NCBI RefSeq assembly: GCF_004010195.1
Contig: NC_057755.1
Coordinates: 3,805,462 to 3,869,360 of the forward strand
DNA from: Chiloscyllium plagiosum
Taxonomy: Eukaryota
Reading direction: 5' to 3'
DNA length: 63,899 nt
Shown here: in pieces, positions 105 through 53,205 of the stretch
Position numbering within the stretch: position 1 is the stretch's first letter
Layout: every line of letters starts with the position of its first letter
Notes under the pieces: model-generated
What the model saw: the letters and a program-made list of their open reading frames with translations, nothing else
Databases searched by the model: none
Told to the model about the DNA's origin: nothing
Made by a program: the position numbers and the translations under genes

Positions 105-647
105 TGTGGGATATAGGTAAAGCACTGTTGCTTCTGCAGCCGTAATTACTTCTGCAAGGTGATGAGCTAACCTAAACCATTGTATAATTGATTCAGCCAA
201 GAACTGAGATAGCTAAAATGTGCATACAAAGATGAAACCCTAAAGAGGGAATACATAATTGCTTCTGCTATGTAATGGACTAACTTACACAACTGTATAA
301 TTGTTTCAGCAGAGAGCTGAATTAGCTAAAATGTGATTGCAAACAATGGAACATTTAGATTTAGATTACTTTACAGTGTGGAAACAGGCCCTTCAGCCCA
401 AAAAGTCCACACCAACCCGCAAACCACCCATACCCCTACATTTACCCCTTACCTAACACTACGGACAATTTAGCATGGACAGTTAATCGAGAGAGACTCA
501 ATTAAGCTGTATAAATTGTGGAGAACTTTTTGGATCAGTGTGCCTTCTTGTTAGACACCTGTCTTGCAATAACGTTTCAATAAAATTCGCCGCTTCAGAA
601 TTTGACTCACACTGAAATTTATTGATGCATGAGCTTTGTTTCTCACA
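105..647 (+). repeat. 5' LTR (interrupted by a SINE fragment, part of U3 deleted)
   Basis: TGTGGGA...TCTCACA termini. TATA-like TATAAA at ~510 and AATAAA at ~579. Matches 6831-7080 and 7338-7497. Confidence 0.92.
355..488 (-). mobile_element. HE1-type SINE 3' fragment inside the 5' LTR
   Basis: The reverse complement reads ...catgctaaattgtccgtagtgttaggtaaggggtaaatgtaggggtatgggtgg...gggctgaagggcctgtttccacactgtaaagtaatctaaatctaa, the same family as the SINE at 53220-53510. It is absent from the 3' LTR. Confidence 0.8.
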
Positions 648-650
648 ATT

Positions 651-668
651 TGGGCGCTCGTCTGGGAT
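651..668 (+). promoter_or_regulatory. Primer-binding site, tRNA-Pro type
   Basis: TGGGCGCTCGTCTGGGAT matches the canonical Pro PBS TGGGGGCTCGTCCGGGAT with 2 mismatches, 3 nt after the LTR end. Confidence 0.88.
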
Positions 669-950
669 GTCCATCATCGCCAGCAGGGTAGGCAACGTCG
701 ATAGCTGGAAAGACACGTCCTTGTTCCTTTTAGAATAGTCCTGTGTTCCTAGGCGGTGGATTCCCCTTCTGGTTGACAGATTGAGATCCAATGAGAGTCT
801 ATCTGAACCAGGCGAAAGGGTAGGCACAGGGAAACATCGAGCCAGGCAACTCTGTGCACGGACCAAGAAGGAAAATTGACTTTTAAGTACTGCCTTTGTG
901 GCTGGGATTGAGTTCTAGTAGTTAGCAAGAGGCTAACGAAGGAACTCAAT

Positions 951-1356
951 ATGGGCTGTGCCGAGGGTAAAGAACATGTCTACGGGGAAAAAAAAAGAAA
1001 ATGGAGTTGGAGGCAGGGTCCCTGACACCATACCTCCAGAAATCCCACTATTGTGGAATTGAAAAAAAAAATGTACAAGGGAAAAAGATAAGATAAAGAT
1101 GATTAAATATTGTTGCTTTGCATGGACTAAGGAATCCATTCTGCATACCGCCGTGTTCTGGCCAAAGTACGGATCTGACGATGACTGTGTTTGTAAATAT
1201 TTGAATTTATATGTAAACAGAAAACAGCCTTTCAGTCAGGAGGAATCGGATTCTGCTTCATGTCGGAAGGGCTAGTAGCTGAAGAGCTACTGAGGGTACA
1301 CTTCGTAACTAAATCATGGTCAGACATCCAGAAATAGATTCTAAAGATGGAGGGGT

Positions 1357-1357
<1 letters not shown>
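951..1357 (+). pseudogene. gag: ERV gag relic: matrix region fused to a capsid C-terminal fragment
   Basis: Starts MGCAEGK (myristoylation-type). The frameshifted segment KMIKYCCFAWTKESILHTAVFWPKYGSDDDCVCKYLNLYVNRKQPFSQEE is matrix-like. At ~1281, EELLRVHFVTKSWSDIQK*ILKMEG resembles the capsid C-terminal FVTKSWPDI motif. Confidence 0.75.

Positions 1358-1410
<53 letters not shown>
1357..1410 (+). repeat. (TG)n(AG)n compound microsatellite
   Basis: Directly visible; it marks the 5' junction of the replaced internal segment. Confidence 0.95.
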
Positions 1411-1414
<4 letters not shown>

Positions 1415-2798
1415 AAGAGCTGCACAGCTAATAGAAAGCTTAGCCCTTTGTTTGTTGGTGATTGAATGTTTGTGCTTTGTTGAGCTTGAGATCCGGGACT
1501 GTTTTGAATCTGATTTCTATTATGGAAATTTAACATGATTTCTTTTAAGGTTAAGGATTTTACAGTGATTATGAAATGAAATGTTTACTCCTGTTCTTTA
1601 ACAGGTCACGACTGTAACTAACTAATCAGTTTCTAACTAATCTCTTTTTTTCTTTACATAAAGGCCAACCTTGTTCGGTCTCAGATCAGCTTAATACGGA
1701 GGAAAACAACATTATAACTTTTTTTGTGTTTCAGACCCATTTGTTTCCACTTAATTTTAAGATTGATGTGTTTCATTGATTATTATAATGTGCTAGCCTT
1801 AGCCTTATTCAGAATGTCCCCTACCTCAATGACAGTTGAAGTTTCAGTTCAATATTGGATTGTAATAAGTCCAAAAAAGATCGTATGGTTAATATGTGTG
1901 ACCTTGGATTCGGCCATTTTTCATGCATTAAAATTTTTTTTTACTTGAATGGACAACTCCTTTTAAGGCAGCTCCGGTTATTTCGCGATTTAGAGTATTG
2001 TAATTGAGCAATGATTGGTCAGGACTGTTTAAGATAACTAATTTTGGATTTGATTTAAGGGCCTAAAACCGGGTAATTTAGTGGATTGGTACCACTCCAC
2101 TCAGTGCTCTCTCCAAAATTCAAGCAGACTTTTATCCATATCATTAGGTGTCACGAACGAGGAAAAAGGACTTCTGCCTGGCTTAAGCAGTCACTGCTGT
2201 CACCCAACATTCCAACCTTTGGAAAATAGGGACAGCCAAACATATTGAGGAGTTGGGTGGTATATCAATCAATATTTCTTTTGTAGACAAGTGAATGAGA
2301 CAAATCACCAATTTATTTCTTCTCCCCTTGCAATTTTTGATTAGCTGAAAATTCAAATCCTAAAATTAGCTTTCAGATTATGACAAGTAACATTCCAAAA
2401 TGTATAGTTAGGAATAGCCTTTAAAGATAGACAAGCATAAATTGATAAATTGATTAAGTGAGGCTAAAATGAAAATAAAGGCAAGGAGATCAACTGCAGA
2501 AGGGAAGAGAATGATGCAACAAGAATGATAACGCAGCAGAGTGTTTTTACAGTGTTTTAGTCACTTTTTGGGTTTCCACCCTGAATTACACATAATGATT
2601 ATTTGTATTATTCATTAGATATATTATTATTTATATTATTATTATTATTTATAACAAATCAATTGTATCAGCCTGTATCAATAGTAATTGGCAGGATTCC
2701 TTCACACATTCTCAGTGACCTGTCATATTGATTCATAGCTAATTTAAAATATAACTGCATTAATTCATTGTTAATTTAAAAATGGAAAGCCACATTAC

Positions 2799-4685
2799 TG
2801 GCCAGAGTGTGTGCAGACAGTGGCAGCAACAGCCTTATTGGTAGAAGAAAGTCGGAAACTTACTTTTGGGGGAGTCTTAATAGTCAGCACTCCACACCAG
2901 GTGCGGAAGATTTTAAATCAGAAAGCAGGGCGATGGCTCAGAGTCTAGGATCTTGAAATATGAGGGAATATTAATATAGCAGAATGACCTTGTGTTAGTC
3001 ACAGACAGTTGCTTAATTCCAGTTGCATTCCTGTGGCTGGGAGAGTGGGAGGCCCTTCACAATCCAGAACCACGACTGCTTGGATATTATTGAATATCAG
3101 TCGAAAGTGCGGATGGACTAAAGGGACATCTTGCTGCATGCGGGAGCTCAGTTGTTTATCGACAGGTCCTCCCGGATGATTGAGGGTAAAAGACACAATG
3201 GAAATGCTGCAGTAGATGGGATAGAGGGAAGCGTTATCGAGGCCGAAAGACTGCCTAACGGCTGGTCAGCCCAAACTTGTGAACTCTGTGCCCTAGAAAG
3301 TGCTTTCAGAGCTTTAGAAGACAAGGAAGGAACGGTGTGCACAGACTCCAAATATGCATTTGGAGTGACACACACCTTCAGAAAAAATTGGCAAGAAAGA
3401 GGACTAATAAATAGTAGAGGAAAATAACTAGTACATGAGGAATTGATAAAACAAGTGCTGAAATCCCTGTTACTCCAAAGAGAAATAGCGATAATTCATA
3501 TAAACGGACATCGGAAGGGGGATGAACCGGAAGTTAGAGGAAATAAACTGGCCCATGAGGTAGCTAAAAAAAAACAGCCCTGAATCCACAAGGAGCAGCG
3601 ATATACTCCGTTATAGCTACAATTCCAGATCTTCAGGGTGCCCCGTTGCTGACTGCAAAGGAGGAAAAGGAACTAAAAGATTTAGGGGCTGCAAAGACAT
3701 CGGATGGGCGCTGGATGTTACCCGATGGGAGGGAAATGTTGAATAAAATGATGATGCGAGAAATTCTGGCTGTCTTACGTCAGGGGAGTCACTGGGGAGT
3801 GGAAGCAATGTGTCCCAGGAGGGAGAGAACCTGGACTTAGACCATTTCAGAGCATCCAGGTAGATTAGACCGAATTATCCCGAATGGGAAGACTGAGGTA
3901 TATTCTGGTAATAGTTGATCACCTATGTGGATGGGTGGAGGTGTATCCTTCAGCCACTGCCACCGCAAGTGGGGTGTCCAAGATAGTACTTGAACACATA
4001 ATCCCCAGATACGGGATGGTGGAGTGCATAGTTTAGGATCAGGGAACAAATTTTACTTTCAGGGTGCTCCAAGTAACGATGAAGGGGTTGGGAATCTCTT
4101 CGGAGCTCCACACCCCTTGGCACCCACCTTCATCAGGAAAGGTTGAGAGAATGAACCAGACACTCAAGAGGCAGTTATCTAAATTAGTAATAGAAGCCAG
4201 ACTCCCTTGGAATAAGTGTTTACCTATAGCCCTTTCGGGAGTGCGAACGGTCCAAGGAAAGATATGGACTGTCCCCTTATGAGATATTGTTTGGCCTGCC
4301 CTATCTGAGAACGAAAGGAGAACTACCGACCTTGGAGATTAAAGATCTGTTTTTTAAGATGTATATGCTGGGTTTGTCCTCCTCTTTGCCTTTCCTCAGG
4401 AAACAGAGTTTAATGGCACAGACTCCACCCCTTGAAGTCACTGTCCATCCGATCCGATCAGGTGATTGGGTCCTCGTCAAATCATGGACAGGGACCAAAT
4501 TGCAACCAGACTGGGAGGGTCCGTACCAGGTTCTTTTGACTACTGAAACGGTGATAAGAACGGCAGAGAAAGGCTGGACTCACTGCACCTGGATTAAGCG
4601 GCCAGTGGAATCTCCGGTTGAGAGAGAAGGCTGGACAACCGAATCGACAAAAGAACCACTTAAACTCAAGCTAAAAAGACTTTAA
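2799..4685 (+). pseudogene. pol: ERV pol relic: connection domain, RNase H and integrase; protease and RT catalytic domain missing
   Basis: Connection: WPECVQTVAATALLVEESRKLTFG. RNase H: LFIDRSS..SAQTCEL..TDSKYAF..HINGH..GNKLAHEVAK. Integrase: HTPWHPPSSGKVERMNQTLK and WEGPYQVLLTT. Several stops and frameshifts. Confidence 0.92.
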
Positions 4686-4699
4686 ATAACTGATTATAC

Positions 4700-6760
4700 A
4701 GTGGCGGCGCGAACGCAGGATAGTTTCCGTGGTATTGTATGCTAAGGCTCTTGGTGCTTCAGTACCATTGTAGAATGGGGGGCGGTGGGAAGTTTAGTTC
4801 TATGATATTAGCTCTTCTAGTCCGAGGATTCTGTCAGGCCCTAGTGTGGTCGTCTTACTTAGGAATAACGGTACCAGAGAGGACAAATCCACAAGTCATA
4901 GACACGGATGCCTGCCGCCTAGTGGATTGTGGAGATATAAGAAGTCAGAGGCAATGCAGTAACTCAGAGATACCTAACGTTCTACGAAAAAGGCCACGAA
5001 ATGGGGTGGGGGGGGGGCACGGGGTGGGTTTGAATGGAAGAAAGTGTCTCGTAGAGAGGAGCATAAGGGGTATCTTTGGGATGGAAGATGTAAAGGATGG
5101 CGGAGGCAGAAAAACCGTGAAGGGGATCTTTTGATTAAAACACTTGTCACAGTACAATGGGGCCCCTTCCTGCCAGCTGTTGACAGTCCCGATAAAAATT
5201 TGTAATCCGATATGTTTAACAATACGGAAAACCTCATGGCAAAAAGCGGTTGCGGGGGGAGATACATCTCAGGCCCAATTAAACAAAACATTTGTGATAG
5301 AGATAAAAGCAGACGGGAAGGATTTCTTGGGCCGTTGCTTCAATATATAGGTAAAAGACGGAACCTCAGTAGCAGAAATGAATGGGAAAGCCCCTTAATC
5401 TGACCCTAAGGTGATAAAAAATTGTAGAGGTAAAAGACTTAAAACAGGCCATTGAAGTAGAAACAGGATATGGGGATACAAATGCCTGGGTGGAATGGGT
5501 AAAGTACACAGTGAAAAGTGTGAATTAAAGCAATTGTTATGTTTGTGTCTCTGGGAGACCAATGGCCCAAGTAGTCCCCTTTCCACTTGGTTGGAAATGA
5601 GACAGGAGGGGCATGACATGCATGATAGCCCTGTATCAGGATGAGACCGCATGGAGTAATAAAAATTGGATGCCCCTTCTATTAATGTTCCCTCCCTTAA
5701 AGAAGGAAGATTTAACCCCCACCCCGCACCATGTTTTCTGCTGTGATCGGAAATCACACATCGCATGTAAACAGACGAGGAACAAATCAGTCCAGATACT
5801 TGGGAGAGCTGAAATCGTGTACCAAAATTGAGTACATGACGGAAACGGACAAGGGAGGGAACTACTCAGCATTAATGTTTCCACGAGCGGATGGTTGGTG
5901 GTACTGCAGAGGGAAAATATTGAGACCGACCTTACCTACAGATTGGAGGGACATGTATGCGATTGTGCAATTGGCAATCCCGTTCACCCTGGCATTTGGA
6001 AAGAAAGAGATAGTAAAGAAAGGGGAACGAAGTAAGAGATCAATATTGGATACTTCTTTTGATGATCATATGCATCTAGACTCTACAGGAGTTCCAAGAG
6101 GAGTACCCGATGAGTTCAATGCTCATAACCAGATCACAGCCGGAGTTGAATCGGCTCTCTTGGTGGGTAACAGTCAACAAAAAATGTGGACTGGATAAAT
6201 TATATTTTCTATAATCAGCAAAAATTCATTAATTACACTAGAGACGCAATCAAAGGCACAGCCAAACAACTTGATACCACCAGCAGAATAGCCTGGGAGA
6301 ATAGAATGGCCTGAGATATCATCCTATTGGAAAAAGGGTGCGTGTGTGTAAGTGATGTTAGGTGGGAGCTATTGCACCTTTTTTCCAAATAACAAAGCCC
6401 CAGATGGGTTTATTACTCGGGTCCTGCAATGCCTAACAACACTGGCGGAAGAACGAGCTGAAAACTCAGGAGTCAACACGTCACTCACTAGGTGGCTAGA
6501 ATTGTGGCTTGAGAAGTGGAAGTGTTAGGTGGTTTCAGTTCATACCTCTTTGAACACAGTGGCAGGAGTACGAACCTCAATCGGATGTTGTATCATTCCT
6601 TGCACACGAGGATTAACCCAAAGGCTGATCGAAACAGCTTTGCCCTCAAAAATGCCCCTAAAGAGCAATCGGGGAGAAGGGCTCTAACTGTTGAACAATG
6701 AGGGAATATGTGATCCTGGGGAGATTTCCAAAGCAAATGAAATCTCGGGGAAGATGCTCG
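4700..6760 (+). pseudogene. env: ERV env relic (gamma-type SU/TM)
   Basis: NAWVEWVKYT..SNCYVC CXXC motif at ~5480-5550; furin site RSKR at ~6028; GVPRGVPDEF; WINYIFYNQQKFINYTRDA; ISD-like WENRMA*DIILLEKG followed by a Cys loop. Frameshifted. Confidence 0.9.
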
Positions 6761-6814
6761 CCAATTTGGAGATGACATATAAGGAAAATGCAGAAGACAA
6801 TAAAGGATCATTTT

Positions 6815-6830: not shown

Positions 6831-7497
6831 TGTGGGATATAGGTAAAGCAGTGTTGCTTCTGCAGCCATAATTACTTCTGCAAGTTGGTGAACTAACCTA
6901 AACCATTATATAATTGCTTCAGCCAAGAGCTGGATTAGCTAAAACGTGCATACAAAGATGCAACTATATGAAGGGAATACATAATTGATTCTACAATGTA
7001 ATGAACTAACTTACACAATTGCATAATTGTTTCAGCAAAGAACTGAATTAGCTGAAACGTGCATGAAAACAATGGAATATGTTACAGACAAATAGATAAG
7101 GAGGGAATGATCATTGAGTTATGCCAGCTCGGCATATTAACTCCACGTACGCACCAGAACGAGCCAAGTTAGCTGCAAATAAGGGATAATACAAATAAGA
7201 GTATGGGTCGCCAGGCTTACAGTATTGGGAGAAGTAAACAAGGGCGGGGCACTGCTAGGCGGGGCAGAATACAATAAGGAATAGTGATAGGTTTGACACG
7301 TAATATGATAGGCCAATGAAGTAAACGGGGAAGTACTGAGAGAGACTCAATTAAACTGTATAAATTGTGGAGTAATTTTTGGATCAATGTGCCTACTTGT
7401 TAGACACCCGGTCTTGCAAGAACGTTTTAATAAAATTCGCTGCTTCAGAATTTGACTCGGACTGAAATTTATTGATGAGTGAGCTTTGTTTCTCATA
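6831..7497 (+). repeat. 3' LTR (667 bp, full U3)
   Basis: Homologous to the 5' LTR. Has an internal ~115-bp U3 duplication, a CCAAT at ~7312, TATAAA at ~7359 and AATAAA at ~7429. Ends TCTCATA (CA>TA). Confidence 0.92.
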
Positions 7498-8044
7498 TAT
7501 TGTTACCTGATAACCGTGAGGGTTTCAGTAACTCCCACTTTGATAGCTGTGACGCCCCTTGTACTGGACAGGTGAAAGTGTGACCTCACAGTGTCAGTGT
7601 GACTTCACCGTTTACATCACAGAGAAAGAAACCTGACATCACAATCGGTTTGTAACCTGGCTTCGTCTGAGGCACAAGGCTGCACGAGGATACCCAGGGA
7701 AGGCAAGGGCACTGCACTGACTATGTCTCAGGCTGATCTGTCTGGGAGTGAGTATGATCAGAGAGAGGATCAAAACAGCTTCACTTTACACAACACAACG
7801 CTGTGGAAAGACCATAAGTGAGGTAATCAGACAGAACATGGTGAGGTTTGAAAGGTTTATCTAAAATTCTTCCTCTTGCACTGACTGAGAGTTGGCGGGG
7901 GGAATGTGAATTAATGCTCCAGAGTTTATGAAAACGGCATTTAGAGTTTATTTAAACTTGTAAGTTATACAGAACTGATTATTAACATGTGTCAGAAACT
8001 TTTATCAAAAATGTAATTCTCCGCCTCTCACCTTGCCAATCCCT

Positions 8045-9495: not shown

Positions 9496-10062
9496 ATAGA
9501 ACATCAAAAATTACAGCGCAGTACAGTCCCTTCAGCCCTTGCTGTTGTGCTGACCTATGAAGCCCATCTAATCTACATCTATTCCGTTTTCATGCATCTG
9601 TTTATCCAATAATCAATTAAATGCCCTTAAAGTTGGCGAGTCTACTACTGTTGCAGGCAGGGCGTTCCACGCCCCTACTACTCTCTGAGTTAACCAACTA
9701 TCTCTGGCATCTGTCCTGCATCTGTCACCCTTCAATTGAAAGCTATGTTCCCTCATGCTAGTCATCATCATCTGAGGAAAAAGGCTCTCACTGTCCACCC
9801 TATTTAATTCTCTGATTATCTTTTCTGTCTTAATTAAGTCACTTCTCAACCTTCTTCTTTCCAACAAAAACAGCCTCAAGTCCCTTAGCGTTTCCTGATA
9901 AGACATTCCCTCTATACCAGGTAACATCCAAGCCAATCTTCTGCAAACACTTATCAATCTTCCACATCCCTCCTATAATGCGGTGACCAGAACTGTATGC
10001 AATACTCCAAGTGTGGCCGCACAAGAGTTATGTACAGCTGCAGCATTACTTTGTGGTTCCGA
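9496..10062 (-). mobile_element. CR1 LINE 3' fragment
   Basis: The minus-strand ORF MLPGIEGMSYQETLRDLRLFLLERRRLRSDLIK...TQRVVGAWNALP is the CR1 ORF2 C-terminus. Confidence 0.88.
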
Positions 10063-10069
10063 AATTCAA

Positions 10070-11030
10070 CCCGTGTGCTGCGGCTAGATCATTAAGGGGT
10101 TCCATTCTCTTTCATGTTTACCACTGGTCTGGGTTTTCCCTTATATTTCTCTGTCCCTCATCACATTATCCTGTGGGTCAGGTGGAATGTACTCATTTTA
10201 ATGAGGAAGGACCCAACTCTGGTAACTGTATCTATGATGTTGTGATTATAATTGGCACTAATCTGTGGTGAATGTTATTGAACATCTGGAGATGTTCTCA
10301 TTGGAAGTTCTCATCGAGAACAGTATCTGGGTGTGAGCGGAAATGAAAGTGAGTCCCCTTTCTGCTGCTGCCTACCAGCTGGATGGCTGCCAATGGGTGT
10401 TGGTGTGTCATGTGACCTTCAGCTGGTTTACGCTGGGTAACCACAGAATTCATCGGATCAGGTTTGGGCTGTGCATCGGGGGACTGAATTCGAAAGGTGT
10501 CGTAAGCTGGGAGAAAGGCAGTGTGTGCTCCCCATCTGTGGGCGGGTGTCGATGTGTCTGTGTGGGGCCTCTCACTATTTCCCTGGGTAGGTAGGACCCC
10601 AGAGGCCTACATTATCCCATTCTGGGAGATAGCTGGCTCTCTAGGAATTGTATTTGGTCCTGGTCCTTCCTACTAGGGCCTAATGTGCTTTGCTCAGTGT
10701 TGCAGGCAGACAGGACACATGCAGCTGCTTGGAGCTTCCTGCACTCTCCTCCAACTTGTCACTGTATCTTGAGGCTGCTTCTCGGTCCCCAGTGTCCCTC
10801 CTCTCACTGGGATTGGCTCTTTCCAATTGGAACTGGAGCTGTTCCGTGTGGGGGACGTTTTCATGCAACGTTCTGACCTGTTCCTTGTGTAAGAGCTCTC
10901 GCCCTGTCGCAGTCTGTAGTTTTTCCTGGAGTGAATGAATCTCACCTGTCTTATCCTGATCGAGCTCCTCCAGGATATAGACAGCAGCAGCAGAATACGA
11001 TGTTCTACAGGACGAATCGATAAAGAGATT
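10070..11030 (-). mobile_element. Possible decayed LTR-element gag N-terminal fragment
   Basis: A minus-strand coiled-coil-like reading (EELDQDKTGEIHSLQEKLQTATGRELLHKEQVRTL) is followed by a Pro-rich stretch and PMNSVVTQRK. No diagnostic motif. Confidence 0.3.
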
Positions 11031-11139
11031 CTAATTTAAATGGGGAGATGTTGTAGGAATTTCAGAGTGTTTGTGTGTAACATTTGCAGTCCCCTGCAGA
11101 GGGCCTCATACAGTGACTCTATGTGTGTGTGTGTGTTGC

Positions 11140-13150
11140 CCTTTGTCAGCATTTCGCCCATATCTCTCTCAACCCTTCCTATTTATATACCCAGCCAGAT
11201 GTATTTTAAATGCTGTAACTGTACCAGCCTTCACCAATTTCTCTGGAAGATCATTCCATACGCACACTACACTCTGCATGAAAAATTGCCCCTTTGGTCT
11301 CTTTTATATCTTACCCTTCTCACCCTAAACCTATGCCCTGTGGTTCTCGACTCACCCACCCCAGGTAAAAGACATTGTCTGTTTGCCCAATCCATGGCCT
11401 TCATGACTTAATTAAACTCTATAAGTTGAGCCTTCAGCCTCTGACGCTCTACAAAAAAGACCTAGCCTGTTCAGCCTCTCCCTGTAGCTCAAATCCTCCA
11501 ACCCTGGCAGCATCCTAGTAATTATGTTTCTGAAGCTTTTCATGTTTCACCACATCCTTCCATTAGGAAGGAGAAAAAAACTTCATGCAATATCCAAAAA
11601 TGGCCGAGACAATGTCCTGTACAGCCGCAACATGACGTCCCAACTCTTGTACTCAATGCTCTGACCAAGGAAGGAAGGTATAGCAAATACCTTCTTCACT
11701 ACCCTATCTGCCTGAGACTCCACGTTCAGGGAGGTATGAAGCTGCACTTCAAGGTCTCCTTGTTCAGCAACACTCCCTAGGACCTTTCCATTAAGTCTGT
11801 AAGTCCTGCAAAGATTTGCATTTCCAAAATGCGGCATCTCACTTTTGTCTGAATTAAACTCCATCTGCCACTTCTCAGCCCATTGACCCATGTGATGAAG
11901 ATCCTGTTGTAATCTGAGGTAACCCTCTTTGTTGTCTATTACACTCCAATTTTGGTGTCATCTGCAAATGTACAAACTATACCTCTTATACACACTTTCA
12001 AAACATTTATATAAATAATGAAAGGTAGTGTACCAAGCACTGATCCTTGTGACACACCACTGGACACAGGCCTCCAGTCTGAAAACCTTCAACTCTCCAC
12101 CACCACCCTCAGTCTTCTACGTTCTGAACCAGTCCTGTATCCAAATGGCTAGTTGTCCCAGTATTCCATGAGACCTGACCTTGCTAAGCAATCTCCCATA
12201 AGGAACCTTGTCAAACACCTTACTGAATTCCATATAGATCATGCCCACCACTCTGCCCTCATCAATCCGCTTTGTTAATTCCTCAAACAACTCAATCGAG
12301 TTTATGAGACATGAATTCCCATGCATAAAGCCATGTTGACTATCCATAATCAGTCCTTGCTTCCCAAATACATCTGCATCATGTCCCTCAGGATTTCCTT
12401 CAACAACTTGCCCACCACCGATGTAATGCTCACTGATCTATAGTTCTCTGGCTTGACCTTACCACCTTTCTTAAATATTAGCATCACGTTAGCTAACCTC
12501 CAATCTTCTGGCACCTCACCTGTCACTATCGATGACACAAATATCTCAGCAAGGAGCCCAGCAATCATTTCCCCCAGCTTCCCACAGAGTTTGAGGTTAC
12601 ACCTGACCAGGTCCTGGGGGTTATAGCCATTTTTATGCATTTCAATACATCCAGCATCTCTTCTTCTGTAATATGGACATTTTAAATAATATTTCCATCT
12701 GTTTTCCCATGTTCTATATCTTCATTGTCCTTTTCCACGGTAAATACTAATGCCAAGTATACATTCAGTATCTTTGCATTCTTCTGTGGTTCCACACAAA
12801 GGCTGTCTTGCTGATTTTGAGAGGGCCTTTTCTCACCCTAGTTACCCCCCTTTGTCCTTAATGAATTTGTAAAAATTCTTTGGATTCTCTTTAACTCTAG
12901 TTGCCAAAGCTATCTCATGTCCCCATTTTTCCCTCCAGATATCCCTCGTAAGTATACTCCTACTGCCTTTATACACTTCTAAGGATTCCCTCGATATCTC
13001 CTATCTATATCTGCCATATGCTTCCTTCTTTTTCTTAACCAAAACCTCAATTCCTCTCATCATTAGTATTCCCTACATCTACCAGCCTTTCCTTTCACCC
13101 TAACAAGGATATACTGTCTCTGAACTCTTATTTCAAGCCTTCCCATTTTC
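11140..13150 (-). mobile_element. CR1 LINE, ~2 kb decayed ORF2 (RT)
   Basis: TGEVPEDWRLANVMLIFKKG, QHGFMHGNSCLIN, FSKVFDKVP, FADDTK, WAEKWQMEFN. Confidence 0.92.
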
Positions 13151-17804: not shown

Positions 17805-18950
17805 TCATACAGTCACAGACTAATATAGCATTGGAAACAGGTCCTTTGGCCCAAACTGCTCCATGCTGACCACGTGCTAGTTCCAATTACCTGCATTTGG
17901 TCTATATCCTTCTAAACCCATCCTATCCATGTACCTTTTCAAATGAATTTTAAATGCTGCTATTTTCGCTCCCTCAACCACTTTCTCTGCCAACTCATTC
18001 CATTCACTCCCCACATGAAGACGTTGCTCTTCAGGTCCTTCATTAACTTCTCCCCTGTCAACTTCAATCTATGCCCTCTAGTTTTCAATTCTCCAACCCT
18101 GGGAAAAAAAGCGATAAGCTTTCATCCTATCTCTGCCGCTCACGATTTTACACACATCATCCTCCTGCATTCCAAGAAATAAAGTGCAGTCCTGGGTAAC
18201 CTCTCCATATAACTCAGGTCTAAATCTTCTTTACGCTCCATCCTTTATTAACTATATCTCTCATATAACAGGATAACCAAAACTATACACAATATTCCAA
18301 GTGCGACCTCACAAATGACTTACACAGCTGTAACATAATGTCCCAATTCCTACACTCGTTGCTTTGACCAATGTAGGCCAGCATGGTAAATGCCTTCTTC
18401 ACCACCATGTCTACCTGTGGCAATACGTTCCAATGACTATGTACTTGTACTCCTGTGTCCCTCTGTTCCACAACACTCCTCAGGACCTTAGTATTTATGG
18501 TATAAGTCCTAACTTGGTATGACTTTCCAAAGTGCAACACCTCACATTTACCTGTGTTGAATTGTGTTTGCCAATCCTCAGCCCACTTCCCTCTAATGCT
18601 TGACAGCATTTGTCGCTTTCAATGATACCTCCAAATTTTGTATCATCTGCAAACTTACTCATCCTGCCTTGTACATTCACTTCCCGATCATTTATAACAA
18701 ATACCGATGGTCCCAGCAACCATCCCTGTGGCTCACCACTAGCCACAGGATACCAGTCTGAGAAACGACTTTCAACAATTGCCCTCTGCTTGCTACCATT
18801 GAGTAAATTTTGAATCTAGTTAGCTAGCTCTCCCTGTATGCCATGTTACTAATATTCACGATTAACCTGCCATGCGGGACCTTGGCAAAGGCCTTATTAA
18901 ATTCCATATAGACAACATCAACTGTCCTACCCTCATCTATCCTCTTGGTG
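17805..18950 (-). mobile_element. CR1 LINE fragment
   Basis: SGEPQGWLLGP, SKFADDTKFGG, WAEDWQTQFN, RSHLEYCV. Confidence 0.9.
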
Positions 18951-20144
18951 GTGAATTTAAAATTGGAACCTTGCAATGTCCAAAAATCAAAACCAGGTTA
19001 ACTACTTGGAAAGTAGTTGTGCTCAAAATGCTATTCTAACATTGTTCATTTACAGACCTCTGAGTGTTCATGATGAAGCGGGTGAATATGGTTAAACCTC
19101 GAATGTTTCCAGAGGAGTTCTTGCAGAGATGTCCTGAAGGTGAAATTGCTGACATGAACAATAACAGTTGTTTTCATTCTTGCTGGTTATTGCTGCCAGC
19201 AGCAGTGAACTTTCTCTGGATTCTCGTTAACTGTGGCTTTTCCTTAGCCTCCTACTGTCACACTTGGTCAAATCGTGCCTTGATGTTGATGGGAGCACCA
19301 CTACCTTCTCCTTTGGAGTTCAACCTCTCTGAACCAAGGCTGTAATCAATGGACCTTGGAGCACCCAAACTGGCTATCAGTAAGCAGATTGTTGCTGAAC
19401 AGGTATTGCTTGTTAGACCTATTAATGATACCTTCCTTCACAATTCCATGTTAGAGAATGGACAGATTCGTCATTAATTGACATCATCAGATTTGCCCTC
19501 ATCTTTCGGTGTAAAGCATGCATGGGTGATTTTTCACATTCTCTGTCCATGACAGTGCTGTTACTGCATGAGAACACTTTGGCTCGGCAGGTGACAACTT
19601 TCTATACTTATGTTATCAGGACCCACAAAATTTTCAGGATCCTGTGCCTCCTGTCATTCTGTAATATCAGGGAGAATGAGCTGACTTGGCTGGAGATTGG
19701 GATCTGTGGACATGGGGACCTCAGGTCGAGGCTAAAATGGATCAACGTCTTGGTCGATTTGGTTGAAAGTTGTTGCAAATGATTCAGCTCTTTCTATTGC
19801 TCCTGGTCTGCCCCATAACTAATGGATTAATTTGTCGAGAGCAGCCTTGTCACCCTGTGGTTTAATTGTCCGTCATATTTTATGACTAAATGTGCCAGAG
19901 TGTAGATCTGTTGAACTTAGATGTGATTCAAAAACAGACATTACTAGTGGAACACAGAAGGTCTGGCAGCATCAGTGGGGAGAGAGCAAAGTTTCATTGG
20001 TTGTGTGATCACTGAGCTCTGTCTGTAACTTGTTCCGTACAAATGTCGTTCTACTTTGTACCTTCACCAGGTTGGAACCTTCCATAATGGTGTTCCATGC
20101 TGCTGTTTGAATATGCTGTTGTACGCATCATTGAACCAGTCTGA

Positions 20145-22449: not shown

Positions 22450-24170
22450 CATTCATGGGCATCGCTGCCTGGGCCAGCATTTATTGGTCATTTCTTGTGG
22501 CTGGTCAGAATGTGTTGTTGAGCTGCTTTCTTGAACTGTTGTTGTCTGTGTGCTGTACACAGAATTACAACACTGTTATGAAGGGCTGAATGGTAATATA
22601 TTTCCAAATCAGGGTGATGATTGACTTGGAAGGAAATTTGTAGTGCATGGTGTTCCCATGAATCTGCTGCTTATGCCCTTCTTGAGGATTATGAGTTTCG
22701 AAGGGTTTGTTTGAGGATATTTGCGTGCAAATCTGGTCTCCTTCGTATTGGAAAGACGTTGTGAAACTTGAAAGTGTTCAGAAAAGATTTAAAAGGATGT
22801 TGGCAGGATTTGAGCTATAAGGAGAGGCAGAACAAGCGGGGGCTGTTTTCCCTAGAGCATCGGAGGCTGAGGCGGTGACCTCGTAGAGATTTAAAAAATT
22901 ATGACGGGCATTGATAGGATAAATAGGCAAAGTCTTTTCCCTGGGGTCGTGGACTCCAGAACAATGTTACGTTTAGGGTGAGAGGGGAAAGATATAATAG
23001 TGACCTAAGGGGCAACTTTTTCATTTAGAGAGTGGTGCGTGTATGGAATGAACTGCCAGAGGAAGTGGTGGAGGCTGGTATAGTTTCAACATTTAAGAGA
23101 CATTTGAATGTGTCTATGAATAGGAAGGGTTTGAAGGCATATGAGCTGTGTCCTGGCAGGTGGGACAAGATTGGGTTGGGATATCTGGTCGGCATGGACG
23201 AGATGGACCAAAGGGTCTGTTTCCATGCTGTACATCTATATGACTCTATGACTTTGGTGAATTTCTGCACTGAATCTTTAGTTGGTACATTTCGCTGCTA
23301 CTGAGAGTCAGTGATGGAAATAAAATGGTTATGTTGACCATCAAGTGAACTGTTTTATCCCGGAGAGTGTCCAGCTTCTTGAATGCTGTTGCAGCCTCAC
23401 TCATCGTGGCAAATGGGGAGTATTCCACCACACTCCTGACTTGGACCTTGCAGATGGTGGACAGATGGAAATCAAGAAGTGAGTTATTGTCTGCTGTATT
23501 CCTAGCTTCTGCCCTGCCTGGTCACCACTATATTTAAATGGATGGTCCAGTTCAGTTTCTGGTTAATGGTCATCTCAAGATGGTTACAGTTAATGAATTA
23601 GCAACAGTAACCCCATTGAATATCAAAGGATGATTGTTTGACTTACTGTTGTTAGAGTTGATCGTTATCTGGCATTTATGTGTCATGTATGCTATTTGTC
23701 AATTCTCATCCCAAGCCTATATATTGTCCATGTATCAAGGCATTTGGATATGGAGTGCTTCAGTGTCTGAGTAGTCACAAATTCTGCTGAACATAGTGTA
23801 ATCATTAGCTATACCCCAATGTCTGACCCTATGATGCAGGGAAGTCCACTGATAAAATTACTGAAGGTGGTCAGACCTACGACACACCTTTGAGGAACTA
23901 ATGCAGAGATGCCCTGCAGCTGTGATGACTGACCTCGAAGAGGTCTTTTATGCTTGGGATGACTCCACCCAGGGGAAATCCCCTGATTTCCATTGCCTCC
24001 AGTTTTGCTCAGGCTCCTTGAAGCCTGACCACATTGAAGGCCCAACACAGCCTTGATGTTAATTGCAGTCAGACCCACCACACCTCTGGAATTCAGCTAT
24101 TTCTGTCCATGTTTGGACCAAGGCTGGAATGAGGTCAGGAGATGAGTGGTGCCACTGAGCAGGTTGTTAG
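22450..24170 (-). mobile_element. Old CR1/L2-superfamily LINE (YKAQVRS..EYSP type) with a nested younger CR1
   Basis: MVEYSPFATMSEAATAFKKLDTLRDK and GISALVPQRCVVGLTTFSNFISGLP; same family as 55169-56045. Confidence 0.65.
22725..23250 (+). mobile_element. CR1 LINE 3' fragment (nested)
   Basis: RVVRVWNELPEEVVEAG..FKRHL, with a CTATGACTCTATGACT tail. Confidence 0.88.
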
Positions 24171-26739: not shown

Positions 26740-28250
26740 AGAATTAATGTTTGTGGTTGTGGTGGCAATCAAGGAACTGCTTTGTTCTGGAGAATGTCTG
26801 TCCTCTTGAGTGTTGTTGGAGGTGCACTCATCCAAGTAAATGGAGAGTGATCCATCATGCTCCCACCTTGTAGATGATGGCCAGGCTCTGGCAGAGAGGG
26901 GTGTCAGGAGGTGAGTTACTCTCTGCAGGATTCCGAGCATCTGAACCACTCTTGGAGCAACATTATTTGTATTACTGCACCTTTCCCGTTTCTAGTCAAT
27001 GGTAACTGTCAGGTTGTTGATAAAAAGGGATTTAAATAGCGACAATGCTATTGAAAAACTGTGATCCAGAGATAGATTCTCTCCTGACTGTACTCGTGTG
27101 GTGTAAATTTGCCATTTATCAGCCCAAGCTTGCATATGGTCCTGGTCTTGCACCATTTGGTCATGGACTGTGTCAGGAATTGAAGAGTCCTTGAATGTGG
27201 ACTCGCAGGTAAACAGGAAAGTGAAGAAGGCGTTTGGTATGTTTTCCTTTATTGGTGGAAGCATTGAATATGGGGGTTGGGAGGTCATGTTGAGCTGTAT
27301 ATGACATTGGTAGGCTACTTTTGGAATATTGCGTGCAATTCTGGCCTCCTTCCTATCGGAAACATGTTGAGAAACTTGAAAGGGTTCAGAAAAAAGTATA
27401 CAAGGAGTTTGCCAGGGTTGGAGAATTTGAGGAAAAGGGAGAGTCTGAACAGGATGGGGCTGCTTTCGTTGGAGCGTCAGAAACTGACGGATGACATTAC
27501 AGAAGTTTGTAAAATCATGAGGGGCTTGGGTAGGCTAAACAGATAGGGTCTTTTCCTTGGAGTGAGGGAGTGCAGAACTAGAGGGTACAGGGTTAGGATG
27601 AGAGGGGACAGGTATAAAAGGGACCTAAGGAGCAAATATTTCATGAAAAGGGTGGTGCATCTATGGAATGAGCTGCCACAGGATGTGGTGGAGACTATTA
27701 AAGCGTTTAAAAGACAGCTGAATGGGTATATGAATAGGATGGGTTGAGAAGGGCATGGGCCAAGTGCTGGCAAATGGAACTAGATTATCTTAATTTATCT
27801 GGTCGGCATGGACGAGTTGCAAGAAAGTATATGTTTCCGTGCTGTACTTCTCGATACTCTATTTCACACAATTGTGCTGTATGTTTTACAATCATTAGTG
27901 AGTGTCCTACTTGATGCAACAAAGGTGATTCATGAAGCAACTGAAGATGGTTGGGCCAATGACACTGCACTGATGAAGTCTATGACTCCTTGATGCCAGA
28001 TTCAGTCAAATGTGAACTTTGTGTCAAGGTCTGTCACTTTCACCTCACCTCTGAATGCCTGTCTTTTTCTATGCCGGAACCAAATGTTTTTATGAGGTTA
28101 GGAGGCAACTGGCCCTAGCTAAGACCATACTAACCGACTTTCAACATGTCCTAACTTTGCAATTATCGCTAAAGAGCGATCCTTATCATCACTTTGGTAA
28201 TCGTGGAGAGTAGACAAATAAGGTGGCAAATTGTTAGGTTGAGGATTTCC
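26740..28250 (-). mobile_element. Old CR1/L2-superfamily LINE fragments with a nested CR1
   Basis: LDECTSNNTQE and MQAWADKWQ motifs; same family as 22450-24170. Confidence 0.55.
27185..27860 (+). mobile_element. CR1 LINE 3' fragment (nested)
   Basis: VKKAFGM.., RTRGYRVRMRGDRYKRDLRSKYFMKRVVHLWNELP. Confidence 0.88.
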
Positions 28251-28257
28251 TGCTAAT

Positions 28258-30908: not shown

Positions 30909-31299
30909 CGGCATTGGCAACTTGAACCTAAAGATCACCTTGCTTCTCTACATCTCACAATCAGTCGTACAACCAATTGTGTTAACAGATTCTGACTTAT
31001 GACATTATGATTGAGGGAGTGGCAGTTATTCAGTCACTAAACACAATTAGGCCTCAGACACAGTCTTGAGGAACGCCGGCAGTGAAGTCCTGGAGTTTAA
31101 ATGGGTTATTATGGGTTTTGAGAAACAAATTGTCAGTGAAGGATAGCACCCCACCTTTCCTCTTTTACTGCATGATCTATCAGAAAGGGGATGCCCACAG
31201 TACAAATGAAATTAAACTGGCACACAACACCTATCGAGGATAAAGACCATTTAGATTTGTTCTGCAAATGATCTAGTCAATCATTTTGATGCAGTTGAC

Positions 31300-31640
31300 C
31301 ACTGCATTAGTCATTCTTGGTAACATTCAGTCTCTCGGCACACAAGGACTTCTTCCTGGCAGAGATGGTACATGGTCTCTGGTTGCTCAGGGTCGCACAG
31401 GTAAACTGTCCCTTCTCGTGCTCCAAATCTGGCAATGGCATGTCCACACAGCAGGGCAAGTTCGATCTTTATTATCTCTCCCCTTCCACCCCCCCTTGCA
31501 AGTGGCTTGTCTGATGAGCTTGCAATGAGGGAGATGAACTCAGGCAGAACGTTCGGCGACCTAGGCAACAGTTGGGGTGGTGAGGAGGACCTGGAAGGTA
31601 CTTCCCATCAGGGTATGAGGCCGTGGAGTGTCCATTGTAA
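31300..31640 (-). mobile_element. Possible L1/Tx1-type LINE C-terminal (zinc-finger) relic
   Basis: LLCGHAIARF..YLCDPEQPETMYHLCQE resembles the C..ET..HL..C motif. Confidence 0.3.
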
Positions 31641-34600
31641 TAAAGTATAAACCATTCCCTCCTTGTATGTATGTGTATACAATATACACATTCTCAATTA
31701 ATTTATGCAGCAGCAAAGAAGTAACACAAACTAATGTCGTAGGAGTCACCTATATTCTGGTTTGAATATCGCGGGAGTCCCCTATTTGAGGCTATAATGT
31801 GTCCCCTTCAGCAGGCTAGAAGTCCTAAGGGCAATCTTGAAATAAATAATTCTCAAGTTAATCAAACTCATGTAGCCCACTTGAGTAAGTATATAGCCCA
31901 CACTGGCAAAAAGTTCATTCATTTTAAACTTTGCACCAGAGATTCCCTTCCTACCCTTTATTTTCTTACTTCATTTGGAGGCATGGGCGAATTAAACAAT
32001 CCTATTTTTATAAAGCCAGCTTTGCTAAGAGGTAATAGTCTTCGAAGGTTTGCTGCGAAAAACATCAATATTACCTAAGATTTCGATTAGTTCCGCAATA
32101 TATTGTATTCTCTTTATTTATCATACGTCAACTTCGTGCCCAATCGAATGGCCCAACCTACAGCTATAGTTAACAATATTTAGAATTAAGTGTAGCAACC
32201 AGATGGTAATTTTGAGCAGAAAAGTTGGCGATGAGTAGCTAGTGAGCAATGCTGTCCCCAAATTATAGTAACATGACACAAAGCTTTCAAACCACACTGA
32301 CATTTTCTAATATTGAGCTAACCTTGAAATTGGACATTGGTGCAGTCTTAAAATTATAAACCATCACTGTTCAGTATCAAACGTCTAATTGAAGATAATT
32401 GCTCAGCTAGAAACTCCTCCTTACATCTAACAGCCCCGTCTGAAGATAAATCAAATCAACCAGTGTGCATTCATATAAGTTGCATCCACTAAGAAAAGAC
32501 AGTTAGGCTTAGGGTCTATGTATGAACTCAAATCACTTGATAATTCAGTCAGTAGTATACTTTAATATAATATGAAGTGCCTGTGTCATTTCAGAAATGG
32601 TCATTTGCAAATTACTTCCAAATTTCTAAACAATATGGAAAACGATCCAACACTAAACCTGCTTACAGTGAGTAAGCAATAGATAAATCAACGTTTACAT
32701 TGTGAAACGACACTGAGCAAACAGTCTCATTCCCCGGTGATTTCTGTACCTTACCCAGAGCTGGCATACCCGTCCTTATTCTGTGTCTAACCGGGTTTTG
32801 CTGGGGACCAAATGGGATCAGGAGTTTGGGGTGAAAACCGGCCAACTTGGCAGCTGCATATACTTACCCACTACTTTAGAAACAGTATCAGTTTTATTAG
32901 CATGAGCTAAACATCCCGAAAAGCGTCAGATTGATTGGACAAAATAGCATTACTATAACACTGCCCCCTTGGGCGGTTACAAATCTTCAATGTTCCCACA
33001 AAGCTCCAACATCGTGAATCATTTTAAAAGCACAATGAAGAGTCAGTGTATATTTAAAGATATTCCTTTTGATAGAATGAAAGCATGTCGATTCCCAACA
33101 TCAGTTCGGGGCTAACATTAAAAACTTATTACACATCGGCCACATTTCAACAGTTAAAGCAAGGGCCAGGCCCATGTTCCTGGGAGATTTTGCTTTCTTG
33201 TTCCTAGTCTCAAAGGTAAAGTTCTGTGAACTGCCTGTCCCCATTTTCGGGAAACGGTTGTCCAGCAGTGGTCGTCGGGTAGGTACATGAGGTAGGTTCC
33301 GCCTCCAGTGGCTACCCTGGTTCCAATCAACCATATCAGAACTGGCATATGGCTTTTTGTATCCTGAGGGCGCTGGATATAATTTGGTTTACCTGTAACT
33401 TGTATCATGGTTCAATCCCCCAATCACATGCAGAATGTCTTCAACTGGACAGTAAGGTATCTTTCCATTGTTTAATTAACAATAAATTAATGCAGCCATG
33501 TTTTAAGTTAGCCATGAGGCAATAAGACAGGTAACTGACAATGTGCAATGGAATTAAAACAAGCGACCCTGCCAATGAATTTTAATTGGAGAAAATACAT
33601 CTGATTATTGTAAATATTATAAAGTATTATAATAAAGTCATGAATAAATGAATCACCATCAGTAAATCAATGTGGGAACCTAACTAAAACATTTTTAAAA
33701 ACTGTTTCATCCTTGTTATTTCATCATTCTCTTCCCTTCTGTAGTTGATCTCCTCGCCTCTATTTCAATTTTAACCTTATTTAAACAATTTCACAATTTA
33801 TGTTTGTCTAACTTTAAAGCCTGTTGCTAACTATGCATTTTGGAATCTTGATTGTCATAATCTGAAAGATTCTCTCCGTTCTTGAATTTTCAGCGAATCA
33901 AAAACTGCAAGAGGAGAATAACTAAATAGGTGATTGGTCTCTTTGAATCGTCCTGGTCACTCTATCACATGGCTGTGACATTGTGGAGCCTGCTAACTCC
34001 ATGGCAATGGGGCAGTGATGCTACAAAAGAAATAGCGATTGATTTACCACCTATTCCTTGATGAGTTTGGCTGTCCCTATTGTCCAACGGGTGGAATTCT
34101 GGGTGACAGCGGTGACTGCTTAAGTCAGGAAGCAGTCCTTTTTCATTTGTTTGGGACAGCTAATGATGTGGATATAATTCAGTGTGGATATTGAGTAGCG
34201 TGTTACCAAGCACACTTTGCCCATTATTGAGTGGGGATCCATCTGAAGAAGAGTCTGGAAAACAACTTTTCATTTACTTTTTGTGGACTTTGGAGGATCA
34301 AGAGTGGTTAGTTTTCTTTTCTTGTTTTGAGAACTTATCTCCTCTGTGGTAATATACCTCTGGTCATTATTTTTACAATATATATCTGAGTAACATGCAG
34401 CATGTTATTTTCTTTCAGTCATCAATATAAGTTGTAAATTCATTTGTTCAGCATTTAATATTTAAAACGTAAAATGTACACAGTTCCCAACATTGAAATC
34501 CACTATAATTACCCAAAACATCCAAGATTGGTCCTGACCAGTCATTGCACATTTACAATGCTAAAGGTCGTGAAATAACTGAAGCTGCCTCACAAGGTTT

Positions 34601-34951
34601 TGTCTATTCAAATGAAAAAGCAAACTTCTAATGCATGAATAATGGCTGAATCCACAGAAACAGATATTTGCCATCGGGTTCTAATTTTGTTAGATGATTT
34701 ATTACAATCTAATATTGAACTGAAACTTCAATAGTCATTGAGGGAGGGGACTCCCTCAATAAGACTGCAACTGTCCTTACCAATGATCACCAATAAAACA
34801 TAGTAGACTTAAGTGGAAACAAGCGAGTCTGAAACAAAAAAAGGTTATAATGTTGTCTTGCTGTTTATTAAACTGATTTGAAATCGAATAAGGTTGACTT
34901 TCTCGTATGGATAAAAGGTATTAGTTAGAAACTGACAGTAGGGCAGTCATG

Positions 34952-35372
34952 GTGAAAACAAGTTTTGCAGATTCTGGAAACCAGAGTCGAGATTAAAGCA
35001 CAGCAGGTCAGGCAGCAACCAAGGAGCAGGAAAATCATTGTTTCAGGCAAAAGCCCTTCCTCAGGAATCGACGCAGGGTGCCTGCAGGGTGGAGAGATAA
35101 ATGAGAGGGGGGTGGGTGTGGGGAGCGAGTAGCATAGAGGATTTTAGGAGAATGGGGTGGGGATGGAAGCTGGTGAATGGGGATGGAGATGAGCAGAATG
35201 GAGGGTGGAAAAAGGTAGCAAAGAGTATAATGGGTGAATGGGGGTGGGGATGAAGGTGATAGGTCAGAGAGGAGGGTGGAGTTGATAGGTGGAATGGAAG
35301 ATCGGCAGGTACGATAGGTCATGAGAGCGGTGCTAAGATGGAAGCTATAGCTGGGGTGACGTGCAGCAAGGA
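34952..35372 (-). mobile_element. Penelope-like element 3' fragment with an 8-bp target-site duplication
   Basis: Homologous to 48165-48430; flanked by CAGTCATG at 34944-34951 and 35373-35380. Confidence 0.8.
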
Positions 35373-36246
35373 CAGTCATGACCTATAAACTGAAGAGGAG
35401 ATGATATTTTATTTCATAATCACTGAAGGATCCTTAACATTAAAATAAATCATGCTAAATTTTCAAAATGCAAATCAGATTCAAAACAGTCATGGATCTC
35501 GAGCTTTTTCACATAATGTCATTAATGTTGAGGATGGATCATCTGTTCTGTCTATGCAATTACCCATTTTAAAATTACTTCAGTTTTATAGCAACTGATT
35601 AAAGAATAACTCACCAATCAGAATTCCACAAACGTTAATTTATTTCACAAACTCTTTTTAAAAACCAAATTAACCTTTATTTATAAAATACCGCAATATT
35701 TCCTTTTATTAATCAACTTAAGTTGATTTTTTTAAGGTATTATTATTAGTTATTAACTTATTATTAAGTTCCAGGCCTCCTTTCTATCGATTATAAGCAG
35801 ATAAATCTTAGTCAATATACTTTAAATTAACATCAACCACCTGTGTTAAATATCGGGGTCAACTGCTCGCTGTGTGTGTGTGTGTGTCCCTCCCTCAGTA
35901 ACAGCAGTGTGTACCATCCCCACCCCCCCCCCCCCCCCCCCCAGACACGACCCCCATAATCCCCCTGAACCAACCCTTGCTAACAGCGATACTTTTGAGC
36001 TGGAATGGAACATAAACAGCGAGGGTTCAAGTCAGACACTCCTTGAATGAGAGGAAAACCAAACGCTTTTAAAATGTTCACATCTGGCCGGCCGAATTCC
36101 TCAACACTCATTAGTGAAAGACATTTAACTCTTCCACCGCTGTTAACGACCTGTCCGAGCTGAAATGAAACATGGCCCCAAAATGAAGATCCAGACACCT
36201 CAAGAGAGGACTCTTATTTCGTATTCTGTTAAAAAATTCAACGGAA

Positions 36247-36540
36247 TGCGGTCTGGAAAAAAGCAAGCGTCATTAGTTTATTGAATTAAGGCACCTTGAT
36301 GCAATTCTGTTCAGCAACACAAAAGGCTAAAGCATTCGTGTTCTGTGGTGATGTTGTGCAATTACATTGGAAAATTAGAGATTATTTGTATTTTGCGGTC
36401 TGGAAAAAAGCAAGCGTCATTAGTTTATTGAATTAAGGCACCTTGATGCAATTCTGTTCAGCAACACAAAGGCTAAAGCTTTCGTGTTCTGTGGTGTTGT
36501 TGTGCAATTACATTGGAAAATTAGAGATTATTTGTATTTT
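36247..36540. repeat. Tandem duplication, 2 x ~147 bp
   Basis: TGCGGTCTGGAAAAAAGC starts at 36247 and 36394; 3 differences seen. Confidence 0.95.
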
Positions 36541-36556
36541 TAAGATATAGTGCAAC

Positions 36557-36745
36557 CTTAATTACAAGAAAAGACCAATCACATTTAATAAGATGACATG
36601 ATTTCCAGTAAATCAACCCAATGATATTTCCTGGGAAATGGTTCTTAATTAGAAGAAAAGTCCAATCAACTGTAATAAGGTGACATGATTGACAACAGGC
36701 TAATCCAACGATATTCCCTGGGGAAGGGGTCTTAATTTATGTAAA
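36557..36745. repeat. Diverged tandem repeat, ~87-bp unit, 2+ copies
   Basis: CTTAATTA.AAGAAAAG.CCAATCA...TGACATGATT...GATATT.CCTGGG occurs twice, with a third CTTAATT start. Confidence 0.8.
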
Positions 36746-37029
36746 TATCCACGTCATAGTAGCGGTTCAATGTTAGTTCGAATACACATCACTGTCTTAT
36801 GAGAAATCCATTGTTCTCTTTTATCTCAGAATACAACCAAATTAGCAAAGCATCAGTTCAGATTCACAGAGTCAAATTATTGCTTGCAGCCATTTTGTTG
36901 TGTTATTTTAAATTGAAAAATCATTTTGTTTTGAATAAAAATCTGCAGATACTTGTTGCTTCTGACAACAGCCTAAATTCAAGTTTTAGATCCTCTGGAG
37001 GGGTATTAAAGTGGCAGGCAACTGGAATC

Positions 37030-52799: not shown

Positions 52800-53205
52800 C
52801 GGAGCTATGGAGAGAGGCTGAATATGCTAGGATTGTTTACTCTGGAGCGTCATCGGCTGAGGGGTTACCTTCCAGAAATGTATAAAGTCATGACGGACAT
52901 GATTAGGGTAAATAGACAAGATCTTTTCACTGGAGTGGGGTAGTTCGGAAGTAAAGGGCAGAGGTTTAGGGTGAGAGAGGAAATATTTAAAAGGGAACTC
53001 AGGGGCAATGTTTGCGCAAAGAGGATGAGCTGCCAGAGGAAGTGTTGGAGGCTTGTATAACATTTAAACGGCATCTGGATAGGTATATGAGTAGGAAGGG
53101 TTTAGAGAGATATGGGCCAAGTGTTGGAAAAGGGGAACACATGAGGTTAAAATACCTGGTCATCATGGACGAGTTGGACTGAAAGGTCTGTTACCGTGCT
53201 TTAAC
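52800..53205 (+). mobile_element. CR1 LINE 3' fragment
   Basis: SYGERLNMLGLFTLERHRLRG..; 3' UTR shared with the other copies. Confidence 0.85.

Follow-up and report, generated by a model that had tools for sequence, protein, structure and literature searches.

We analysed a window of 63,899 nucleotides of Chiloscyllium plagiosum DNA (contig NC_057755.1, positions 3,805,462 to 3,869,360 of the forward strand). It contains a provirus, called here provirus A, in which pol starts abruptly behind a non-coding segment, and this segment is present a second time in the window, within another element (element B). We consider it fairly probable that provirus A is a multi-copy, non-autonomous recombinant of a class I endogenous retrovirus (ERV), in which the protease (PR) and the polymerase domain of reverse transcriptase (RT) were replaced via template switching between co-packaged RNAs. 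Template switching had already been proposed in the first-pass annotation of this DNA. The replaced core, the sharp 3' junction and the microhomology on which that proposal relied were all upheld, whereas the nature of element B and the length of the overlap had to be corrected.

Provirus A and its missing core

The following features were assigned to provirus A.

105..647, + strand: 5' LTR, with TG...CA ends, matching 6831-7497
651..668, + strand: PBS-like sequence directly behind the 5' LTR, presumably of the tRNA-Pro type
950..1272, + strand: broken remnant that we take to be gag matrix-like
1347..1410, + strand: (TG)n(GA)n microsatellite, evident from its sequence
1412..1482, + strand: non-retroviral bases before the overlap with element B, found in other family copies and absent from B
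1483..2798, + strand: shared AT-rich non-coding segment, copy A, defined by homology to B, with no coding trace
2799..2805, + strand: overlap of the shared segment and pol, 7 nt, 6/7 identical to B 33451-33445
2799..4682, + strand: broken pol remnant with the end of the RT connection domain, RNase H and integrase
4750..6800 (start approximate), + strand: broken env-like region, assigned by its position and a weak match to protein P0040 (E 0.27)
6831..7497, + strand: 3' LTR, with a purine tract just before it and ending in TA

Judged from these features, provirus A is a decayed two-LTR ERV of class I (gamma- or epsilon-like) with an LTR pair, a PBS, a PPT and a short flanking duplication. The LTRs matched in 221 of 253 and 148 of 164 alignment columns (88.5% alike, K2P about 0.12), and the 4-nt flanks at 101-104 and 7498-7501 were identical in three of four positions. 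We also observed that in the 5' LTR a foreign piece at window positions 355-488 replaces about 257 nt that are kept in the 3' LTR (7081-7337). This piece is an insertion with a deletion, and we assume it to be derived from a SINE or a LINE tail.

The gag-like remnant matched nothing in Pfam, PDB, homologue and Atlas searches, the last of which gave no usable match for 1063-1272. Pfam detected no family in the env-like region, where we nevertheless take some stretches to be TM motifs. In the pol remnant, Pfam identified RNase_H (2e-8), rve (3e-8) and MLVIN_C (4e-10), so that provirus A carries the RNase H, the integrase core and the MLV-type integrase C-terminal domain of a class I pol.

An integrase-core search yielded 41 proteins, and within their clusters we found a full Pol, P0044, with protease, RT, connection, RNase H and integrase domains (Pfam). 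Provirus A matched only residues 484-1148 of P0044, from position 2799 on, with 94% identity over the first 47 aa. Provirus A therefore lacks the protease, the polymerase domain of RT and the beginning of the connection domain. The first-pass annotation had spoken of a swap of NC-PR-RT. Replacement of the core agrees with our results, but the loss is larger than that, and the capsid domain went undetected too (Pfam found neither a capsid nor a nucleocapsid family in 900-2830).

Another protein, P0001, matches window positions 3733-4682. Its open frame of 400 aa fuses the early part of the protease in frame to the integrase, and over 354 aa the protein shows 99% identity to P0044. P0001 is another deletion derivative of the P0044 ERV group, without RT and RNase H.

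The segment shared with element B

Self-BLAST of the window returned four blocks in the same order on opposite strands, with E values from 1e-30 to 1e-87.

1483-1615 and 35505-35372, opposite strands: 82% identity
1626-2025 and 34935-34531, opposite strands: 74% identity
2114-2286 and 34193-34021, opposite strands: 81% identity
2286-2805 and 33952-33445, opposite strands: 73% identity

It had been claimed that 1483-2805 (+) is colinear with 35505-33445 (-) over its whole length, at 70-80% identity by eye. The order of the blocks is as described, and pairwise alignment gave a comparable identity of 80.6% (1027 of 1274 aligned columns), with a K2P distance of 0.24 over 1161 columns. All four motifs quoted from the segment were found in both copies. 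The homology does not run over the whole length, however, as copy B has about 780 extra bases. These comprise a later insertion of 418 nt, about 290 nt and 69 nt, and the segment sequence of B that has no counterpart in A amounts to about 360 nt. Identity between the copies dropped abruptly past 2805/33445 and likewise before 1483/35505. Beyond these points the flanks of A and B, both upstream and downstream, aligned as shuffled sequences do, in line with the earlier statement that homology ends sharply and copy B runs into unrelated sequence.

The features of element B, all on the minus strand, were as follows.

36190..36975, - strand: putative LTR-like stretch upstream of B, with 87-nt tandem units, TATA-like and AATAAA motifs and a 147-nt near-perfect duplication
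33445..35505, - strand: copy B of the shared segment, extended by blocks at about 34200-34490 and at 33953-34021
34952..35369, - strand: later insertion in copy B, 418 nt, with an 11-nt target duplication (10/11)
31700..33444, - strand: non-coding continuation of element B, 1.7 kb, Pfam negative
31510..31610, - strand: probable integrase C-terminal remnant, frameshifted, on the same strand as the segment and 3' of it
31149..31166, - strand: PPT-like purine tract followed by TG, with no LTR partner behind

Element B had been regarded as belonging to a different element family. Its features suggest a separate lineage but probably not an unrelated kind of element: we read B, as the weakest step of our argument, as a probable ERV of that other lineage, truncated and defective. 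The integrase remnant at 31510-31610 gave weak matches to Pfam MLVIN_C (E 0.11) and to PDB 2m9u (E 0.35). With a short profile it was the best site of the window after A's own (9.2 bits, compared with at most 7.7 in 30 shuffles), and with a longer profile its score lay within those of the shuffles. A homologue search with this integrase piece found no match. We do not class B as a full provirus, because it has no LTR pair in the window; the LTR-like stretch 36190-36975 has no second copy there, and no clear PBS was seen in element B. A myristoylation-like motif at about 33245 raised the possibility of a gag start, which found no support, and the Atlas search gave no usable match for 33104-33388. 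The non-coding continuation contains one protein match, at 32914-32771, to P0042 (GCC39661.1, a hypothetical protein of the bamboo shark Chiloscyllium punctatum; 58%, E 1e-5), the sole match among 1.84 billion proteins. GCC39661.1 probably represents a gene model placed on a further copy.

The insertion 34952-35369 is related to 48161-48398 of the window. We assume that it and 48126-48968 are related Penelope-like remnants; Pfam matched no family in 48129-48968. The window further contains many decayed fragments of LINE RT, lying in either orientation and 63-75% alike (9600-12700, 17900-19000, 22700-23500, 27200-29600, 45000-46000 and 52800-53200), which we take to be CR1-like. Near-perfect tandem duplications were observed at 36247-36540 (147 nt, 98%) and 54233-54998 (383 nt, 99%), each either a recent duplication or an assembly artefact. 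There is an assembly gap at about 59930-60420, and the window has 485 N.

The shared segment has a GC content of about 35%, compared with 46% in pol. Pfam found no family in any of six frames of A or six frames of B 33400-34960, and there were no matches in an Rfam scan or a tRNA scan. No scanned frame showed an RRM family either. A candidate coding signal in block 2286-2536 (3-base periodicity 26/11/10, p = 0.006, in one of 14 ungapped blocks) was rejected, with p = 0.059 on retest. The best pN/pS of the segment was 0.44, a value attained in 5.9% of 1000 permutations, and in that frame five stops (5-6) are common to both copies. Read from the two aligned copies, the segment was already non-coding when A and B split. 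DNA pattern searches returned 1 and 0 matches in viral contigs and 0 and 6 in metagenome contigs. We attribute these to chance, since none extends beyond 24 nt against the window.

The junction and its occurrence in other copies

The first-pass annotation had placed the switch into pol at the residues WPE, and pol of provirus A indeed starts at 2799 with W-P-E-C. The pol side of the microhomology was located by protein alignment. In all eight Pol relatives compared at this place the Trp is preceded by Gly, whereas provirus A has unrelated codons there; therefore the overlap is 7 nt long (2799-2805). A microhomology is thus present as had been reported, but it does not extend over the 10 nt of 2796-2805. 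The chance of a six-in-seven match is about 7e-4 at a fixed point, a figure calculated post hoc. Viral contigs searched for intact retroviral pol DNA contained no retroviral locus. The overlap would represent a template-switch microhomology. In the part of Tan et al. 2016 available to us, microsimilarity is reported at 25 of 29 such joins, with a median of 6 bp, and internal ORFs are replaced rather than interrupted (PMC5131818). The junction of provirus A is unusually clean: it lies at a single codon boundary, the overlap is 7 nt, and a probable donor form is present within the same window.

We wanted to see whether the join is a trait of a family. Parts of 1400-3400 were detected in 20 of 24 listed runs (three organisms, eight studies), with shares of at most 0.19. 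Contigs or reads of four runs, three of DNA and one of RNA, were aligned to 1412-4700 at 80%. One DNA run each from organisms A, C and B gave 1974, 2491 and 1576 aligned contigs, respectively, of which 127, 140 and 113 were at least 99% alike. The segment is thus high-copy in three organisms. Provirus A and element B share one window because the family is abundant, and the inverted second copy 31 kb away, which had been emphasised earlier, is real but expected by chance for a high-copy family.

Among 24 listed of 6108 pieces, two span the junction and extend over 31 nt beyond it in either direction. One is a contig of run X12 (2704-3016, 44 differences) and the other a contig of run X6 (2745-3042, 43 differences); both are about 300 nt long and about 86% alike to A, and they come from two organisms. 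No junction-spanning piece from organism B was among these 24. Another X6 contig matched pol of A at 2850-3171 with 4 differences in 322, which indicates that the junction-spanning contigs represent other copies and not this locus. Since the same junction occurs at about 86% identity in contigs of two other runs, the segment-pol join is a family trait, and the proposed chimeric family gains support from its diverged copies.

The upstream boundary at 1483 had to be abandoned. Contigs of the three DNA runs continue over 1482 in the form of A, so 1483 is the point at which B departs and not the start of the family insert. Within the segment, eight X6 contigs switch at 2078 from A to B-like sequence, and 1649-1830 is missing from other contigs; the segment is therefore a mosaic of blocks. 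Summed contig depth, which does not equal copy number, peaked at 1412-1631, 1852-2071, 2622-2841 and 4382-4491; at 2072-2291 it was lower by a factor of about ten or more. The B-type continuation at 2799-2805 was absent among 24 of 1089 loose ends, so that the donor form rests on one locus.

Two further observations were made in these runs. A high-depth X12 contig joins window position 2800 to 3733, which is also the break of P0001. This joint could be either a breakpoint that recurs or an artefact of mapping, and we set it aside because its short side has 30 nt and it coincides with the break of the unrelated P0001 fusion. In the single-cell RNA run X21, 484 reads aligned, mostly at 1447-1576. 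They derive from a diverged copy, in sense orientation, and end in A-runs (1571-1576). The read ends probably result from internal priming, since there is an A-rich stretch at this place in the DNA contigs. Copy B has AATAAA at about 35416-35411, near the counterpart of the read pile.

Origin of the proposed recombinant and comparison with known systems

The replacement most likely arose during minus-strand synthesis. RT would copy env and the integrase/RNase H part of a P0044-like autonomous family back to 2799-2805, jump at the microhomology there to a co-packaged B-type RNA and copy the segment, and then go back to the retroviral leader and gag by at least one additional switch upstream of 1412. 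The recombinant, retaining LTRs, PBS and PPT, would spread with the proteins of an intact helper ERV, and the segment would be passed as a block mosaic among several subfamilies. We thus infer a transfer from a B-type donor to the lineage of A, which likely needed a helper virus to spread. The split of A and B likely predates the integration of A, if B is of similar age, because the distance between the segment copies exceeds that between the LTRs of A (K2P 0.24 and 0.12, respectively).

Several other explanations were weighed against this one. The segment might be a host RNA (3' UTR, intron or lncRNA) captured once by template switching of an ERV, with A and B as its descendants and B no separate retroviral donor. 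The AT-rich, non-coding character of the segment agrees with this, and such captures are known from crocodilian ERVs, as described in the accessible part of the report (PMC4299795). Against it, the 12 segment frames searched with Pfam hold no trace of a host protein, and neither pN/pS nor the shared stops give a coding signal. We regard it as unlikely, and it is compatible with template switching between co-packaged RNAs, for which it would provide the ultimate source of the segment. We find it very unlikely that the direction was the reverse, that is, that the segment-pol form is ancestral and B was derived from it by a second switch or a deletion a few bases into pol. Several copies do show the A-type junction, and at 1483 B leaves the family while other copies follow A. 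Still, the break of B would have to fall by chance within 7 nt of an existing junction, B has segment sequence that is missing from A, and the eight X6 contigs follow the form of B at 2078.

Insertion of an independent transposon into both elements, which the first-pass annotation had named as a case that would overturn its reading, is highly improbable and already largely refuted. The high copy number and the sharp pairwise ends would suit a transposon. We found no terminal inverted repeats (8/30), no tail and no target duplication at any end of either copy; pol is replaced rather than interrupted, the 3' end overlaps pol codons, and other copies cross 1483 in the form of A. Taken with its non-coding nature and high copy number, the lack of termini and of a duplication argues that the segment is not an independent transposon, and in repeat annotation it should not be modelled as one. 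We give hardly any credence to the idea that the segment represents gag-pro-RT of the element itself, decayed until it can no longer be recognised; for PR-RT this idea is refuted. The segment does occupy the place where these genes belong, but pol is 94% identical to P0044 directly from 2799, while none of 14 Pol proteins, P0044 included, matches the segment significantly, and the segment differs from pol in GC content. Template switching between co-packaged RNAs therefore remains the explanation that we prefer.

We think it quite unlikely that selection maintains the segment as a portable, non-coding RNA cassette, serving packaging, dimerisation or export, that moved between unrelated shark ERV backbones. 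If it were, gene-less elements would out-compete their helper viruses, and the most widely shared blocks (1412-1631, 1852-2071 and 2622-2841) would be the working parts. The finding would matter more if the segment were a functional RNA cassette that several lineages of ERVs have in common, or part of a host transcript that became amplified.

Among known systems, the analogy with the MER4 group drawn earlier is apt. The interiors of this group are largely non-coding and non-autonomous, and provirus A fits the mosaic class I ERVs of mammals; we use this as an analogy and claim no membership of the group. Provirus A retains remnants of RNase H, integrase and env, unlike mouse VL30 as we take its structure to be. 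It would resemble VL30 in its presumed dependence on a helper: according to the available part of one paper, VL30 RNAs are packaged and reverse-transcribed by a helper virus (PMC4997597). Patch repair at microhomologies is described there as well.

In mammals, class I ERVs that recombined and then spread are already established. HARLEQUIN, which includes MER4I and MER57I pieces, is ascribed to co-packaging and polymerase jumps in the parts of two papers available to us (Vargiu et al. 2016, PMC4724089; Kojima 2018, PMC5753468). Provirus A agrees with HARLEQUIN and with further mosaic human ERVs of class I described there in having two LTRs and an interior patched together from other families, and its recombinant, too, was likely amplified later (PMC4724089, PMC5753468). 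Its interior joins viral sequence to sequence shared with another family, and the junction is found in several diverged copies. Unlike HARLEQUIN, provirus A has a cartilaginous fish as its host, and the imported piece has no assigned family.

Provirus A shares with LTR-mediated retrocopies the replacement of part of an ORF, a short microsimilarity at the 3' join and, probably, non-autonomous spread; their insert is an identified host mRNA, whereas no parent gene was found for that of A, whose nearest source is another repeat (PMC5131818, as far as the accessible text goes). In crocodilians, nectin3 or KIT-ligand was taken up by ERVs (Chong et al. 2014, PMC4299795, in the part at hand). The nectin3 ERV, too, belongs to a non-mammalian lineage that was amplified with foreign cargo and lost a viral domain, but the crocodilian cargos are ORFs under purifying selection, whereas the cargo of A is non-coding and replaces PR-RT, not env (PMC4299795).

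CmiERV of the elephant shark is, like provirus A, a chondrichthyan ERV; the available part of Han 2015 describes near-complete elements and fragments and mentions no recombinant family (PMC4422223). Two lineages of chondrichthyan ERVs are epsilon-like, according to the accessible part of another paper (PMC4977317). We did not find the recombinant family of A in the literature searched, shark ERV papers included; Dfam, Repbase, subscription papers and supplements were outside this search and may describe it. In summary, these comparisons suggest that provirus A extends the recombinant, helper-dependent class I ERVs from mammals to a cartilaginous fish.
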